Assembly (NCBI GenBank): GCA_963711565.1
Contig: CAVQEQ010000003.1
Span: forward strand, 576,001-640,000
Direction of reading: 5' to 3'
From: an uncultured delta proteobacterium
Lineage (GTDB): Bacteria > Desulfobacterota > Binatia > Binatales > Binataceae
Length of the DNA: 64,000 bases
Below the pieces are notes generated by a model. The model did not search any database. It was not told the DNA's origin and worked only from the letters and a program-made list of their open reading frames with translations. Below are positions 2,695-13,080 of the stretch, piece by piece. The position numbers were made by a program, and so were the translations under genes. Numbering within the stretch: the stretch's first letter is position 1; each line of letters starts with the position of its first letter.

Positions 2695-4200
2695 TTAGAG
2701 CTTCACGTACACGGACTTGATTTGCGTATAGAGATCGAGTGAATGAACCCCCAATTCGCGGCCGAACCCTGATTGCTTGTATCCGCCGAACGGCGAGATC
2801 GGATCAGAGCCGCCGTAGGTATTGATCCAGACCGTACCCGCCTTCAATGCGCGCGCGACCTTAAGCGCGCGACTGACGTCGCGGGTCCATACGGCAGCCG
2901 CGAGACCGTAGGTGGTATCGTTGCCCTGCAGGATCGCATCGTTCTCGTCTTTGAACGCGATAGCGGCGCCGACCGGGCCGAAGATCTCCTCCCGGGCTAT
3001 GCGCATCTGATTGTGAACTCCGGCGAAGATCGTCGGCCTCACGAAATAGCCGGCGCCGGGGACTGCTTCGCCGCCGGTGGCTACCTTCGCGCCTTCACCT
3101 TTCCCAATTTCCAGATAGCTCTTGACCCGATCGAACTGTTCCCTCGAGACGACCGGGCCGAGCCGGGTCTTCTCGTCAAGCGGATCGCCCACGGTCATCT
3201 TTTCGCTCTGCTCGATCAGCCGTTCGACGAATTCGTCATAGACCGGTTGCTCGATAAAGATTCGCGTCCCCGCTGTGCAGACCTGGCCGGAGTTGAAGAA
3301 CACGCCCCGGGTCGCGGACTGAACGGCGGCCTCGAGATCGGAATCGCGAAAAATAATGTTCGGCGACTTGCCGCCAAGCTCGAGCGACACGCGCTTGAGA
3401 TTTCCCGCCGACGCCTGAAGAATCAGCTTGCCCACTTCGGTCGAGCCCGTGAATGCGACCTTGTCTACGTCGGGATGTTCCGCGATTGAGCTGCCGGCGC
3501 CCGGTCCAAAGCCGGTTATGATGTTAACGACGCCGTCAGGGACGCCCGCTTCCTGGATCAACTCGCCGAGCCGGATTGCGCTGAGCGGCGTCTGCTCCGC
3601 GGGCTTAAGCACGATCGTATTGCCACAGGCCAACGCCGGCGCGACCTTCCATGAGGCCATCGAGAGCGGAAAGTTCCAGGGAATTATTTGTCCGCAAACC
3701 CCAACCGGTTCGCGGATCGTGTAGTTGAACGTCGATGGGTCGGACGGGTTCGTCTCCCCATAGATTTTCGTAGGCCATCCCGCGTAGTAGCGAAAAGTTC
3801 TGGCGGCGCCGGGAATATCAGCCAGCTTGGCGATCGCCAGCGGTTTGCCATTGTCGAGCGATTCAAGTTCGGCGAGCTGGTCGGCGTTCTGCTCGATGAG
3901 GTCGGCGATTTTGTACAAGTAGCGCGAACGCTGATGGGGCGTGATCGAAGACCACTTGCTCTCGTCGAAGGCCCTGCGCGCAGATGTTACCGCCGCGTCA
4001 ACGTCCGCCTTGTCGCCTTCCGCAATCAGGGCCAAGATCTCTTCGTTGGCGGGATTGATTGACTCGAAAGTCTTGCCCGATTTGGCCGCGACCCACTGGC
4101 CGTTAATCAGCAGCTTCTTGGGCGAGTCCCTGAGAAAATTAATCGTCGCCCGCGTTTTTATTCCCGCTACGGCTCTTTCAAGCGATGGAACCGCTGCCAT
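2695..4200 (-). CDS. NAD(P)-dependent aldehyde dehydrogenase (paralog 2)
   Basis: 501 aa; same ALDH motifs (PWNFP, FTGST, ELGGKSP, GQVCTAG, EEIFGP). Confidence 0.97.
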   Translation of the reverse strand: MAAVPSLERAVAGIKTRATINFLRDSPKKLLINGQWVAAKSGKTFESINPANEEILALIAEGDKADVDAAVTSARRAFDESKWSSITPHQRSRYLYKIADLIEQNADQLAELESLDNGKPLAIAKLADIPGAARTFRYYAGWPTKIYGETNPSDPSTFNYTIREPVGVCGQIIPWNFPLSMASWKVAPALACGNTIVLKPAEQTPLSAIRLGELIQEAGVPDGVVNIITGFGPGAGSSIAEHPDVDKVAFTGSTEVGKLILQASAGNLKRVSLELGGKSPNIIFRDSDLEAAVQSATRGVFFNSGQVCTAGTRIFIEQPVYDEFVERLIEQSEKMTVGDPLDEKTRLGPVVSREQFDRVKSYLEIGKGEGAKVATGGEAVPGAGYFVRPTIFAGVHNQMRIAREEIFGPVGAAIAFKDENDAILQGNDTTYGLAAAVWTRDVSRALKVARALKAGTVWINTYGGSDPISPFGGYKQSGFGRELGVHSLDLYTQIKSVYVKL

Positions 4201-8977: not shown

Positions 8978-9110
8978 GGCCTGGTCTCCTCCATGCTCAA
9001 CGCTCCCAGTCCTAACGCTTGATCGATTACCGGGCAAGATGCCCGAATGATATTGTCCTTTGGTACAATACGAGGTGCGAAATAGGCCGCGACCCGCACT
9101 CAGGAAGCGC

Positions 9111-9497
9111 TCAGCGCGTGAGGCGGCGCCGAGACGAAGCGAGAAACAACCGCATCGGCAACACCTCGCGCGTCACCGGATTCACCATCAGGCCTAGACT
9201 CTCCAGGGTCAGCGCTCCGAGCAGAGGAGTGACGTTCAGCGGGCCGAATACGACCTTCGAGGTCCCGCGCCGCCCGCCGAGTTCGAAGAACGCCTCGCCA
9301 ACGTCGTAAGCGCGATGCGTCCCGTCGGCGAGCGTGAACTCTTCGCGATCAAGCTTCTCGAGCGCGAGCTTCTTGGCTATCGACCCCGGTAGAACGCTAT
9401 AGAGTGCGCCGGTATCGATCAGAAACTCGATCTCGACAGTCTGCCCACGCGGCCGGCGCGGGTTTGAGACTTTGGCGTTCGTTAATGTTATTCCCAT
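9111..9497 (-). CDS. Clan AA (retropepsin-like) aspartic protease
   Basis: 128 aa; FLIDTGA catalytic motif, TLADG flap, LLGALTLESLGL. Confidence 0.85.
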   Translation of the reverse strand: MGITLTNAKVSNPRRPRGQTVEIEFLIDTGALYSVLPGSIAKKLALEKLDREEFTLADGTHRAYDVGEAFFELGGRRGTSKVVFGPLNVTPLLGALTLESLGLMVNPVTREVLPMRLFLASSRRRLTR

Positions 9498-9516
9498 TCC
9501 GTCTTCGCACTGTCTT

Positions 9517-9592
<76 letters not shown>

Positions 9593-9624
9593 ACCGTCGA
9601 AGCACGTTTGCGTAGCAGGATGTT

Positions 9625-9701
9625 TGGGGTGAGTGAAGGGATTTGAACCCTCGACCGCCGGAGCCACAATCCGATGCTCTGCCAACTGAGCTACACTCAC
9701 C
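9625..9701 (-). tRNA. tRNA-His(GTG)
   Basis: G-1 followed by GTGAGTGTAGCTCAG; anticodon loop TTGTGGC; GTTCAAA T-loop; CCA. Confidence 0.96.
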
Positions 9702-9759
9702 ACCTCGATTACTCAATCCATTCAGCGCCTCGTGCCGGAGAATTCTGAAAAGGCCTCCT

Positions 9760-9836
<77 letters not shown>

Positions 9837-9839
9837 GTA

Positions 9840-9913
9840 TCGGGGCGAGCCGATTTGAACGGCCGACCCCCTGCTCCCAAGGCAGGTGCGCTACCAAGCT
9901 GCGCTACGCCCCG
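9840..9913 (-). tRNA. tRNA-Pro(TGG), CCA not encoded
   Basis: CGGGGCGTAGCGCAG; anticodon arm CCTGC-CTTGGGA-GCAGG; ends CCCCGA, then a 3-nt spacer to tRNA-Arg. Confidence 0.95.
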
Positions 9914-10306
9914 AGCCTTTAGGAAGTAACACACCGGCGATCTGCTCTCAACCAAGGATCTCTCGCGCATCGATTTTGTTCATCGACGTTTTCATGCAAC
10001 CGAGCACCGCGTGCGCGAGATCGTTGTGGATAACCGCATCGTCGATCCCGTGCGCAAAGTTCTGCGGCGCGTTCGATGCGTTCGGGCGCGTTCCGCGCAA
10101 TGCGCCAGTGCAGTCCACTCGACGCAATCCCCCGGATGCATCCCTCGAATAGTGAACGTTCCGGATCGCATGCAGCACAGCGGTCGCAACTTGCAAAACT
10201 CGCGATTTTCGCGGGAAAGTGGCCTAATTCGGTACTTCCAGCCATACTGCGTCGCAGAAAGAGAAAAAATCTCAGCTCACTGTCCATAATTCTTCTAGAC
10301 TTTTCC

Positions 10307-10323
10307 GAGGCACAATCTTTGCT
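10307..10323 (+). promoter_or_regulatory. Sigma54 (-24/-12) promoter
   Basis: GAGGCACAATCTTTGCT: GG-N10-GC with GGCAC and TTGCT, close to the TGGCAC-N5-TTGCW consensus. Confidence 0.7.
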
Positions 10324-10333
10324 TTCCTCTATT

Positions 10334-10451
10334 GTTGCGCTGACAATCTCCTCCCCCGAGACCCAGCGCGTGTCCCCAAGCAAAGGCCGGGCTACTTGAA
10401 CCGTCGGCTCCCCACCACGGTCCCCACTTGTAGCCCGGCCGTTCTTTTTTT
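10334..10451 (+). ncRNA. Candidate sigma54-dependent C-rich small RNA 1
   Basis: Predicted +1 at G10334; hairpin GCGCTG/CAGCGC with inner TCTC/GAGA and CTCCCCC loop; TGTCCCC linker; 11-bp stem GGCCGGGCTAC/GTAGCCCGGCC followed by a T7 run; no credible plus-strand gene upstream. Confidence 0.6.
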
Positions 10452-10551
10452 CCAAATACAAATTACGATCGCGTTTCTCTCCCCCGCATTTTTGCTTCAC
10501 GATTTCTGTTATTCTATCCGGCATTCGGACGCCGTCCGGCAGGGGGTTTGT

Positions 10552-11232
10552 ATCGTTCGCCTGAGCGGAAATTTTCGCGCATCGATCGTCGCGATATTCG
10601 CAGCCGCGGTTTCCGTTGCGCTCGGCGGATGCTGGATGGCAGCGGCTCAGTTCGCGCCGATCGCCGCTAACATAGGCGAGCAGGTCGGCGGCGACGCGCT
10701 CGAGCTGACTGCCGGTGTTGAAGCCTCCACGCACGCGCAACAGAACGCAGAAAAGAAGGAAGAAGACGCGCGTCAAAGTGCGATGACCAGCGGCGACACC
10801 TGCAATCAACTCGAAGTCGAAGTGCCCGATGTGATCGAGTTGCGCCGCGGAGCCGCCGGCGCGCCCGAATATCGCGAGCTCGAGATCGGCGATTCGCTCG
10901 ACCAGCGGCAATGGCTCCCGCTCGCGGACAGTGAAACGACGCCCGACGGATGGCGCCCCGCGGTTAATTTTCTGCAGATGGATTTCTCGCCGCCGCTCGG
11001 CGCGGTGGTCCCTGAAACGGCGAGCACTTATTTGGCCTACACGCCCTCGAAGGTCATCACCGCCGCCGACGGCGATCGCCTCACTGCGATGAGCACGAAC
11101 TTCGGCCCACCGGTCGGCACCTTTACCTGGAAGGGAACCTACTACCATTACGTGGTGACCAGCACGCTGCCATGCTTTCCGCCTCCGCCCGAGCGTCTCG
11201 CACAGGATGTCAGCGCCCGTTCGGGCTTCTAA
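10552..11232 (+). CDS. Hypothetical lipoprotein (start uncertain)
   Basis: Hydrophobic segment with lipobox LGGC followed by a globular domain; the ORF-finder start at 10396 lies inside the sRNA terminator; no ATG/GTG/TTG after the AGGGGG RBS-like motif at 10541. Confidence 0.6.
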   Translation: MVRLSGNFRASIVAIFAAAVSVALGGCWMAAAQFAPIAANIGEQVGGDALELTAGVEASTHAQQNAEKKEEDARQSAMTSGDTCNQLEVEVPDVIELRRGAAGAPEYRELEIGDSLDQRQWLPLADSETTPDGWRPAVNFLQMDFSPPLGAVVPETASTYLAYTPSKVITAADGDRLTAMSTNFGPPVGTFTWKGTYYHYVVTSTLPCFPPPPERLAQDVSARSGF

Positions 11233-11262
11233 ATCATTTTCGCGTATCGCCGGCGACGAGTA

Positions 11263-13080
11263 TCAGCCGTTCTCGCGCGCATAGCGTCGCGCCGCGAGCG
11301 CTCCGAACGCGAGCCGCGACCTCGCGCGCTGGAGGATGAAACTGCGGACCGCGCGGCGCGTCTCGTTGGTGCTGGCGCAAATTTGGGAACATCCCACATC
11401 GATCAGCGCGCCCGCCTGCTCAATCGCCGCCGCCCCGCCCACCGCAATCGTCACGCGACTCGAGATCGCCCGGATCAACGTCACCAGTTCAATCGTCGCC
11501 TCGATACATTCGCCGTTCACGCACGAAATGAAAACGAAGTCGGGTGTGAACCGTTTGACCAGCTCGCAAATCTCCACCGCTGATTTATTCTCGCCGGCAA
11601 AGCTTGCGACCACGCCGTCCTTGCGCACCAACTCGAGCAACATCAGCAGGCTCAGGAGGTTCGCGTCGCCGGGCGCCATCACGCCCAGTACTCGCACGCT
11701 CGGAGAAATCCGCGCGTTGGTGAATCTGCTGGACAGCTCCCCGATGAGTTGATGCGTCGTATCGAGAATGAGCCGCTCGTGTTCTTCGCTGATATGGTTC
11801 CCCGCGCGCTCCTCGTTCGTCAGCGCCAGCGCCGGCTGAATCACGTCCTCGAAGGTTCGTTCGAGCCCGTTCTCGTCGCAGTAGCGGATCGCAACCTGCC
11901 TGGCCCCGTCGGGATTGAGTTCGAGCAGCATGCGGTAGAAGTCATGGTAGTCGTCGAGCACCCGATCCGCGCCGAGCAGGATCGCGAGAAATCCCAGCGG
12001 GGGAATGTAGTCGCCCGCCACCTTCAGGCAAGCGGTCAAGGGTGTCGACAGCAGCAGTCCGGGTATTCCCCACAGCCACGACCAGTACATCGCGGATACC
12101 AGCAGCGCCACTGGCGAGACGTCAACTCCGCGGCCAATTATGAATGGCTCGGCCAACTGCGCCGCAACCTGATCGAGCACGATGAAGGCGCCGAGTATCT
12201 CGAGCGACCTGCTCCAGCCGGGAAACAACGCGAAGGCGACCAGCGCCGGCATCACCGCCGAGCTCATCGCGCCGACGTACGGAATGAATCGCAACAGGAA
12301 CGCGATCAGGCCCCACAGCGCGGCGCTCGGCAGGCCCAGGTACCACGCTACGATTCCGGTGGCGACTCCGTAGCCGAGATTGATCAGCGAAAATAGCAGC
12401 AGGTAATGGCCGACGTTGTAACTCGCAGTTTCCATCGCCTCCGCCGAGATCGGGACCCTCCCGCGCGCCGCCAGCCGCACAAATCGATCGCGCAAATCTT
12501 TTCTGCTGTAGAGCAGAAAAAACAGCAGCACGATAATCAGCAGCGTATTGACGATCGCATCGACGATCGGCGCCACCGGCTTCAGACTGTCGCTCAGCGG
12601 CGCGGCAACCGGAATCGCCATCACTTCGCGCGGTTTATGCTGCGGTTGATTCGCACCTTCCACCCGCTGCTGAACCTCGCTGACCGCCTCCTTGACGTGC
12701 TGGAGCCACGGCGGCGTGGTCTTTTCCAGCGTCGCCAGTTTGTTCCCGATATTGTCCGAGTACTCCGATACCTGGTCCGCGACTTCGGTCAATTCGATCG
12801 TCAGAAAGTACCCCATCGCCGAGATGAAGCCGATCACCAGCAGCACTACGATTGCGGCGCTGATCAAGCGGCCGCAGTAATGCTCCAGGCGCGACGCGAT
12901 CGGACTGAAAACCACGCTCATGATCAGCGCGCTCGCGAGCGGTAGCAGCACCGGCTTGCCGAAGTACAGCGCTCCGGTGCCGATGATCAGCGCGCAAACA
13001 GTTCCGGCGACCCGCAGCAGCGCGAAGCGGTCGCCACTTTCGTAGTAAGGTTGCTCCGTTTCTTTTTCGATCTCCGCCAA
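11263..13080 (-). CDS. AI-2E family transporter with C-terminal B12-binding-like domain
   Basis: LRFIPYVG, EPFIIG, WSWLWGIPGLLLSTPLT AI-2E motifs; C-terminal helical cap plus Rossmann-like domain (PDFVFISC, VGGAA); TTG start with GGGGGG RBS. Confidence 0.85.
   Translation of the reverse strand: MAEIEKETEQPYYESGDRFALLRVAGTVCALIIGTGALYFGKPVLLPLASALIMSVVFSPIASRLEHYCGRLISAAIVVLLVIGFISAMGYFLTIELTEVADQVSEYSDNIGNKLATLEKTTPPWLQHVKEAVSEVQQRVEGANQPQHKPREVMAIPVAAPLSDSLKPVAPIVDAIVNTLLIIVLLFFLLYSRKDLRDRFVRLAARGRVPISAEAMETASYNVGHYLLLFSLINLGYGVATGIVAWYLGLPSAALWGLIAFLLRFIPYVGAMSSAVMPALVAFALFPGWSRSLEILGAFIVLDQVAAQLAEPFIIGRGVDVSPVALLVSAMYWSWLWGIPGLLLSTPLTACLKVAGDYIPPLGFLAILLGADRVLDDYHDFYRMLLELNPDGARQVAIRYCDENGLERTFEDVIQPALALTNEERAGNHISEEHERLILDTTHQLIGELSSRFTNARISPSVRVLGVMAPGDANLLSLLMLLELVRKDGVVASFAGENKSAVEICELVKRFTPDFVFISCVNGECIEATIELVTLIRAISSRVTIAVGGAAAIEQAGALIDVGCSQICASTNETRRAVRSFILQRARSRLAFGALAARRYARENG

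Follow-up and report, generated by a model that had tools for sequence, protein, structure and literature searches.

A predicted sigma-54-dependent small RNA gene with C-rich unpaired segments in the Binataceae

Results

A candidate small RNA gene downstream of a -24/-12 promoter

The subject of this study is a candidate small RNA (sRNA) gene of an uncultured bacterium of the family Binataceae (NCBI GenBank assembly GCA_963711565.1, genome G000 below), found in a 64,000-nucleotide (nt) stretch of contig CAVQEQ010000003.1 (positions 576,001 to 640,000, forward strand) that we call the window and whose numbering we use throughout. The predicted sRNA of ~118 nt occupies 10334..10451 on the plus strand, where a covariance model matches it over its full length with 142.4 bits; its first nucleotide, G10334, is a prediction. 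The RNA would begin with hairpin 1 (10337..10369), closed by the six pairs of GCGCUG (10337-10342) with CAGCGC (10364-10369). Within it, direct reading of the sequence gives an inner UCUC/GAGA stem that leaves the loop CUCCCCC. This loop carries CCUCCCCC / AAUCUCCUCCCCCGAGAC, and we refer to the segment UCUCCUCCCCCGAGAC at 10347-10362 as loop A, or seed A. The single-stranded linker GUGUCCCCAAGC (seed B, 10370..10381, with the core GUCCCCAAGC) leads to an intrinsic terminator at 10385..10451, whose GC-rich outer stem of 11 bp (10385-10395 with 10430-10440) encloses an inner hairpin at 10400..10421 (ACCGU 10400-10404 with ACGGU 10417-10421) bearing the loop CUCCCCACC / CGGCUCCCCACC. A fourth C-motif, GUCCCCAC at 10420-10427, lies 3' of the inner hairpin and overlaps its ACGGU arm, and a U7 run at 10445-10451 ends the element.

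The original prediction, made from the DNA letters alone, had described these stems, loops, linker and U-run terminator as an sRNA with four UCCCC motifs. All of them are found on direct reading, including the four copies of UCCCC within 118 nt, for which ~0.2 would be expected from the base composition of the genome, and RNAfold recovers the same structure for 10334-10451 at -45.3 kcal/mol (z = -5.05), a value that none of 200 dinucleotide shuffles equalled. Only the claim that the first hairpin begins exactly at the transcription start needs correction, as it begins at 10337, 3 nt past the predicted +1. As its loop exceeds 8 nt, the maximum allowed in a simple terminator scan, the terminator was overlooked by that scan. 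No conserved open reading frame (ORF) lies in 10334-10451, the open frames there being one of nine codons or one from 10396 that overlaps the terminator, and the loops of homologues differ by insertions or deletions of 1-4 nt; a small-peptide reading was dropped because no reading frame is conserved.

The sigma-54 type -24/-12 promoter GGCACAATCTTTGC / aGGCACaatctTTGCt is located at 10309..10322 on the plus strand, with GG at 10309-10310 and GC at 10321-10322. It reads GGCAC-N5-TTGC (that is, GG-N10-GC), near the consensus TGGCAC-N5-TTGCW, and the conserved RNA body starts ~12 nt past it. Counting both strands, the 4.84-Mb genome has just 19 copies of the strict form GGCAC-N5-TTGCW. In an alignment of the genus, no position of the GGCAC and TTGC boxes changes, in contrast to the spacer, the segment from -12 to +1 and everything 3' of the U-run. 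Conservation sets in again near stem 1 and lasts up to the U-run, the pattern one would predict for a promoter, a transcript and its end. The promoter also provides an independent test of the element because its boxes were left out of the covariance model, which describes the RNA body alone. Of 37 model matches, 36 have them at a constant spacing: a script found GGCA-N6-7-TGC 24-27 nt 5' of the model start in 32, four more have GGCGC or GGTAC-N5-TTGC by eye, and the sole promoterless match is a weak middle copy in genome G088. The genome encodes rpoN (one Sigma54_DBD gene) as well as 17 genes with a full Sigma54_activat domain, that is, enhancer-binding proteins. Judged by this conservation, the promoter is real, in agreement with the original prediction.

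Conservation, covariation and distribution

A scan of positions 9000-12000 of the window with the 4227 models of Rfam 15, at E up to 10, returned four tRNAs and noise only, and nothing in 10307-10451; the original prediction had likewise not recognised the RNA as belonging to a known family. The host genome (4.84 Mb in 4 contigs, 94.9% complete) holds a single copy, a BLAST search for further copies giving only short matches at chance level, one of which (E = 0.72) turned out to fall in the hxlR leader described below. BLAST detects the element in 33 of 36 other genomes of the genus, at 78-93% identity and with conservation ending at the U-run, and finds nothing convincing in 24 genomes of other families.

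The covariance model R1, built on the RNA body alone, detects the sRNA in 20 of the 30 Binataceae genera and in 112 of 151 genomes (79 of the 95 that are at least 90% complete), always as a single copy save for tandem copies in G088. A broader model, R2, matches in 14 of 17 genomes of the family, and outside the Binataceae gives one weak match (29 bits, E = 0.005) in 133 genomes of the class that belong to 18 other families. When 185,579 species, each represented by one genome, were scanned for the exact pattern, 83 loci were recovered. The 80 of these that are listed lie in metagenome-assembled genomes whose titles name Candidatus Binatus, Binataceae, Binatia or a delta-/proteobacterium; the exceptions are three loci on short contigs labelled Nitrospiraceae, Acidiferrales and Thermodesulfobacteriota. 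Taken over these searches, the element is restricted to one bacterial family, the Binataceae. Unpublished genomes enter these numbers to a limited extent: G018 and G023 contribute sequences to alignment A1 and model R1 and are counted in the BLAST, R1 and within-genus hxlR tallies, G103 is included in the comparison of hxlR orthologues described below, and G101, G130, G118 and G077 appear in tallies only. No conclusion rests on unpublished genomes alone.

The tandem copies in G088 (genus g52) lie at locus L090 on contig C24, where three copies follow one another at 3001-3116, 3222-3341 and 3440-3555. Promoters of the form GGCAT-N5-TTGC precede the outer two; no promoter could be recognised for the middle one, to which R2 gives 39 bits.

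Covariation was assessed in 31 sequences, aligned independently with MAFFT and RNAalifold, that represent 16 genera and include no unpublished genome. RNAalifold places 22 pairs in three helices, in which 98.8% of the alignment cells pair. Compensatory double changes occur at 10 of the 22 pairs (2/6 in hairpin 1, 3/11 in the outer stem and 5/5 in the inner stem), none of 500 column shuffles reached any of the five measures used, and slid partners pair at 30-47%. On this covariation, the structure of the sRNA is real. The refuting conditions of the original prediction that could be examined, a lack of conserved promoter and stems in relatives and a match to a described Rfam family, thus all came out for it, and so did the covariation.

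The best conserved unpaired positions are the C-runs. Three of them are found family-wide: loop 1 has UCCCCC, the linker GUCCCCAAGC and the inner loop CCCCA(A/C)C. The linker core is the most invariant unpaired element and nearly invariant across genera; conservation of the fourth motif, GUCCCCAC, does not extend beyond g1, the genus of the host genome, and nearby genera.

Predicted upstream activator sites

Upstream of the promoter, a predicted distal activator site, TCGCAACTTGCAA, of the form TYGCA-N3-TGCRA, lies at 10184..10196 (plus strand), ~125 bp 5' of the -24 box. A proximal, half-conserved site, TCGCAGAAAGAGA, followed by an A-tract, is found at 10252..10269 (plus strand), ~45-55 bp 5' of the -24 box, and is predicted to be a second activator site and/or a DNA bend. 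The block GTCGCAGAAAGAGAAAAAA is conserved at the proximal site in g1, and sites of the related form TYGCA-N3-YRMGAA stand 80-86 nt before the RNA start in other genera. Still further upstream, an alignment of 25 loci of g1 reveals a conserved block, TGCAGTC...CGCAATCC...TGCATCC, at 10109..10142 (plus strand), which possibly holds further activator sites.

Of 35 loci, 20 have an exact copy of the pattern TYGCA-N3-TGCRA and 31 have one with no more than one mismatch, whereas composition-matched shuffles give 0.06 and 0.40 per 35, respectively. Most of the distal sites lie 149-154 nt before the RNA start, with a second, half-degenerate site at 80-86 nt. By this measure, the upstream sites are real. 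The pattern matches the LuxO consensus TTGCA-N3-TGCAA, given in the available text of PMC3352281 and complemented by the LuxO ChIP-seq sites in that of PMC10328515, and some loci carry it exactly as TTGCAACTTGCAA.

The pattern occurs at 15 places in the host genome, nine of them intergenic. Only three sigma-54-like promoters of G000 have such a site 110-125 nt upstream, those of the sRNA, of a DUF1329 gene and of a pair of small-peptide genes, and no enhancer-binding-protein gene lies beside either of the two latter promoters. No sigma-54 box was found near the other intergenic sites, and none of the other 12 genomic sites is within 6 kb of an enhancer-binding-protein gene, save one inside a coding region. 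The promoter of the peptide genes (L203; C3:1050445, minus strand) reads GGCACAGAGGTTGCT, with TCGCATTCTGCGA 116 nt upstream, and precedes two tandem genes for hydrophobic peptides of ~58 amino acids, each with its own GGAGGA Shine-Dalgarno sequence.

Genomic neighbourhood

Divergent from the sRNA gene, as the original prediction had it, lies a tRNA operon, which comprises Pro(UGG)-Arg(UCU)-His(GUG)-Lys(CUU) at 9517..9914 on the minus strand. The same four tRNAs are upstream and divergent in 24 of 28 loci across genera and are the only conserved neighbour of the sRNA gene. It was considered that the C-motifs might represent codons for these four tRNAs (CCC-AAG, CCC-CAC, CCG-AGA), an idea rejected because other genera do not share the His and Arg motifs. 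In many genomes of the genus, the interval from tRNA-Pro to the upstream sites conserves TGTGGATAA at 10027-10035 (TTATCCACA on the minus strand), which we take to be a DnaA-box-like word.

On the other side of the sRNA gene, genus g1 always has a lipoprotein-like ORF on the same strand, ~100 nt past the U-run. In the window this is the ORF 10396-11232 (plus strand), which has no Pfam match; its C-terminal part of ~200 amino acids is conserved in the genus. Its hydrophobic stretch ends in a lipobox-like LGGC, and no ATG, GTG or TTG is present from 10396, inside the sRNA terminator, to that stretch. Outside g1, the first downstream gene identified by Pfam is convergent in 15 of 23 loci, and in the other eight it belongs to eight different families.

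Predicted targets

The best predicted target is a gene for an HxlR-family regulator (Pfam HxlR; C3:453006-453506, minus strand, in G000). Its leader ranks first among 3281 start regions for pairing with the first 52 nt of the sRNA, at -64.7 kcal/mol (mean -33.5, standard deviation 6.3). Two sites contribute. Site A, GGGGGAGGAGA at -29 to -14, could form 16 contiguous pairs with loop A (15 Watson-Crick and one G-U; -35 kcal/mol) and overlies the Shine-Dalgarno sequence, CUCGGGGGAG(GAGA). Site B, UUGGGGA, is the complement of the linker and is situated in a hairpin loop 25 nt upstream of site A, an order that suits an antiparallel bipartite duplex with loop A and the linker. The 13-nt Watson-Crick match to loop A is the longest among the 3281 start regions, of which 25 have a match of at least 9 nt and 35 have both sites.

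Orthologues of hxlR were identified by the conserved hxlR-HAD gene pair (21/21). When each was compared with the sRNA of its own genome, site A reached at least 9 nt in 10 of 19 and both sites were present in 11 of 19, against the background of 35 in 3281; both are kept in genera g1, g37, g43, g44, g47 and g51. Within g1, where leaders were scored with the G000 sRNA and where loop A is nearly invariant, site A measures at least 9 nt in 17 of 30 genomes, the full 7-nt site B is found in 22 of 30, and the hairpin stem around site B covaries. In g51 the sRNA loop reads CUCUCCCCCGA and the untranslated region (UTR) of hxlR UCGGGGGAGAG, where g1 and g47 have CCUCCCCCGAG and CUCGGGGGAGG; the partners change in step, as a single event. 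From these matches hxlR is a tentatively predicted target, to which we give slightly less weight than would make it probable.

All hxlR-like orthologues (L204-L225, L276-L302) also have a GTTTCAAAGTGCAACGATA box ~85-95 nt before the start codon, duplicated in g51, which is probably the regulator's own operator or promoter.

A second candidate, the operon of a BBP2 porin and a DUF1646 gene, was rejected. In G000 the porin start region contains a 17-nt match with one mismatch, and a 12-nt match lies past the porin stop codon. Against this target, orthologues, including those of genus g32 where the sRNA was not found, have an ordinary GGAGG Shine-Dalgarno sequence only, and the 12-nt site is in the 3' UTR before a terminator. 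Such an element resembling CUCGGGGGAG in the porin 3' UTR before the terminator is seen in genera g43, g44 and g47 as well as in G000. The OmpL-like porin genes of Binataceae (L246-L262) share an upstream box, GGTAYGAATCTTGWAAC, with a sigma-54-like GG spacing and TTGA or TTGT in place of TTGC.

Discussion

The locus at 10334-10451 very probably holds a genuine sRNA gene, one that combines a conserved promoter, covarying stems and a terminator and has no Rfam match, so that the original reading of an sRNA of ~118 nt from a new family is supported. On balance we favour the view that it is a stand-alone gene for a trans-acting sRNA of Candidatus Binatus / Binataceae, and the RNA probably acts by base pairing at G-rich ribosome-binding sites, one of the two actions that the original prediction offered, the other being titration of a C-tract-binding protein. 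In this scheme, an enhancer-binding protein at the TYGCA-N3-TGCRA sites would prompt sigma-54 RNA polymerase to transcribe the sRNA, and transcription would stop at the intrinsic terminator of the gene. Loop A (CUCCUCCCCCGAG), the linker (GUCCCCAAG) and loop C (CCCCA) would then pair with G-rich Shine-Dalgarno regions and block ribosome binding. On the hxlR mRNA, the GGGG-loop hairpin of the 5' UTR (UUGGGGA) would meet the linker, and the Shine-Dalgarno region would meet loop A. The sRNA presumably works without Hfq because no hfq gene was found: the Hfq Pfam model has no match in the 94.9%-complete genome, nor was CsrA found there, while control genomes matched in both searches.

A DUF1329 gene (Pfam) is 2.3 kb from hxlR, in the order hxlR (reverse), dsbA-like gene, Zn-dehydrogenase gene and, preceded by the site and promoter, DUF1329 (all three forward). 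In g43, hxlR and the DUF1329 orthologue are immediate, divergently oriented neighbours, and the latter again carries TCGCATTGTGCGA and GGCA(G/A)-N5-TTGC. Since hxlR thus adjoins a gene with the same kind of sigma-54 promoter and site as the sRNA, a shared activator would drive DUF1329 and, through the sRNA, lower hxlR. The arrangement suggests a circuit in which one activator would serve both DUF1329 and the sRNA, and the sRNA would lower the neighbouring HxlR regulator. Taken to its full extent, this would be a Qrr-like circuit lacking LuxO and Hfq, with LuxO-type sites, a C-rich sRNA, a clamp on hxlR, and DUF1329, forming a protein-plus-RNA feed-forward loop that would be conserved in several genera of an uncultured phylum and legible in the sequence by itself; in that complete form we regard it as rather unlikely.

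Several results weigh against a base-pairing sRNA with hxlR as its target. The gene calls are home-made (3312 ORFs), with starts chosen partly by anti-Shine-Dalgarno pairing. Loop A reaches -18 kcal/mol or lower on 596 start regions, on 226 internal gene windows and, when reversed, on 543 start regions, and a target ranking by energy alone is therefore not discriminating, as reversed seeds score almost as well and the genome is GC-rich. Gene starts show no excess of complements to the linker seed. Site A measures just 5-7 nt in 12 of the 30 g1 genomes despite a nearly invariant loop A, and the g27 orthologue lacks both sites although the sRNA is in the genome, while G026 and G029 keep both sites and the sRNA was not found in them. 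Among orthologues from genera with no detected sRNA, that of g45 is devoid of the sites and that of g46 has two GGGGA runs. The orthologues are moreover related, their counts are not independent, and the sites overlap Shine-Dalgarno sequences, which are G-rich anyway; the BLAST match behind the hxlR site has E = 0.72 on its own.

The activator and the transcript itself raise further difficulties of this kind. By NCBIfam, there is no LuxO equivalog among the 17 enhancer-binding proteins (best 364 bits, cut-off 800), the NtrC or AtoC models outscore the LuxO model for every one of them, and none has an NCBIfam match at equivalog level. The likeness to LuxO sites therefore describes how the system would work and not the family to which its activator belongs. 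No enhancer-binding-protein gene lies beside the sRNA gene, including at four loci without the tRNA cluster. Two soil metatranscriptome runs contain copies from relatives as assembled contigs only, which give no information on start, end or strand. One such contig may be DNA or read-through because it spans from the promoter to beyond the terminator.

Other explanations of the conserved C-runs have to be weighed here. CsrB and RsmZ titrate CsrA through repeated GGA motifs, and it is conceivable that the Binataceae RNA is in the same manner a sponge, its three to four UCCCCA motifs in the loops and linker titrating a C-tract-binding protein. The placement of the UCCCC(A) repeats at unpaired positions would suit this idea, as would the linker GUCCCCAAGC and the outer terminator stem, which are far more invariant than pairing alone requires, and the lack of enrichment of the linker complement in a generic target search. 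However, no candidate protein is known; CsrA was not found and in any case binds GGA and not C-tracts, and a conserved bipartite complement is present in one mRNA leader, that of hxlR. Known sRNAs with C-rich loops, moreover, base-pair (PMC8216469, in the text available), and we consider a protein sponge improbable. It is also possible that the RNA is a general mimic of the anti-Shine-Dalgarno sequence, or an RNA sponge, with many weak G-rich partners, in which case the hxlR match would be a by-product of a G-rich Shine-Dalgarno sequence. Loop A does contain CCUCC, hundreds of start regions pair strongly with it, and elements resembling CUCGGGGGAG occur in porin start regions and 3' UTRs of some genera. 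GGGGA is found at -22..-2 in 182 of 3282 predicted starts, compared with 21-29 in control windows, an enrichment that is partly circular because starts were chosen by anti-Shine-Dalgarno pairing. Yet a general mimic would not explain why, out of 3281 start regions, none scores better than the hxlR leader, nor why the second site of this leader stands in a covarying hairpin loop and in the correct order, and this reading appears to us about as improbable as the protein sponge.

It could also be argued that the element acts in cis, as a leader or attenuator of the gene downstream, which in g1 is the lipoprotein-like ORF ending at 11232. That ORF is indeed always on the same strand and ~100 nt past the U-run. 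However, the sRNA is not a leader in our judgement because the downstream genes vary between genera and are mostly convergent; outside g1 the gene differs in every genus, and synteny largely refutes the idea. Nor is there conservation 3' of the U-run, and in the fold the terminator forms strongly and constitutively; no alternative, anti-terminator pairing is conserved. We therefore hold a leader to be very improbable.

RoxS and RsaE are Firmicute sRNAs that act independently of Hfq. RoxS and FsrA of Bacillus bind targets, including a ribosome-binding site, through C-rich regions, according to the text available of PMC8216469. The Firmicute sRNAs of this type (RoxS/RsaE, FsrA, CsfG) and the Binataceae RNA have in common several CCCC-type motifs exposed in hairpin loops and a linker, with pairing to G-rich or Shine-Dalgarno regions as the proposed action (PMC8216469, again as available). 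They differ in that the Binataceae RNA has no Rfam match, RsaE/RoxS included, is preceded by a sigma-54 and not a sigma-A promoter, has its second C-loop hairpin nested in the terminator stem and forms a family restricted to the Binataceae.

Sigma-54-dependent sRNAs are known in Pxr of Myxococcus, CrcZ and NrsZ of Pseudomonas and GlmY of enterobacteria, which are stand-alone genes, each switched on by a bacterial enhancer-binding protein, and of which CrcZ and GlmY serve as sponges or decoys. Their sequences, folds and modes of action are different, and none of them was matched in the Rfam scan. Hairpins with C-rich loops are likewise found in 6C RNA of Actinobacteria and in the CcsR (cuckoo) RNAs of Rhodobacter, from which the Binataceae RNA differs in promoter and taxon and by the absence of an Rfam match at E up to 10.

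The Qrr sRNAs of Vibrio offer another parallel. In both systems, stand-alone sRNA genes of ~100-120 nt have a sigma-54 -24/-12 promoter and their own terminator, and in both, upstream 13-bp sites of the TTGCA-N3-TGCAA type are present (PMC3352281 and PMC10328515, in their available text). The tandem copies in G088 loosely recall the multiple qrr genes. Unlike Qrr, the Binataceae sRNA does not match the Rfam Qrr model, its genome has no hfq that we could find and no LuxO equivalog, its gene adjoins tRNA genes and not luxO, its seeds are C-rich, and its hosts belong to another phylum.

We class the element as a new RNA family within an established type, that of enhancer-dependent regulatory sRNAs with C-rich seeds. 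A literature search for Binatota, Binatia, Binataceae or Binatus together with sRNA gave no paper combining them among the matches listed, and no regulatory RNA appears to have been described for the Binataceae, a widespread uncultured soil group. Here, the full anatomy of an sRNA can be read from sequence, comprising enhancer sites, a sigma-54 promoter, a covarying fold, conserved seeds and a terminator, along with a falsifiable target prediction. Because this regulatory anatomy is complete and the predicted target specific, the RNA is ready to be entered as a new family and could be tested in a heterologous host without cultivation. What the comparison with known systems brings out is a combination, in which the 5-3-5 enhancer architecture of the LuxO sites at Vibrio qrr genes is joined to the C-rich-loop logic of the Firmicute sRNAs.

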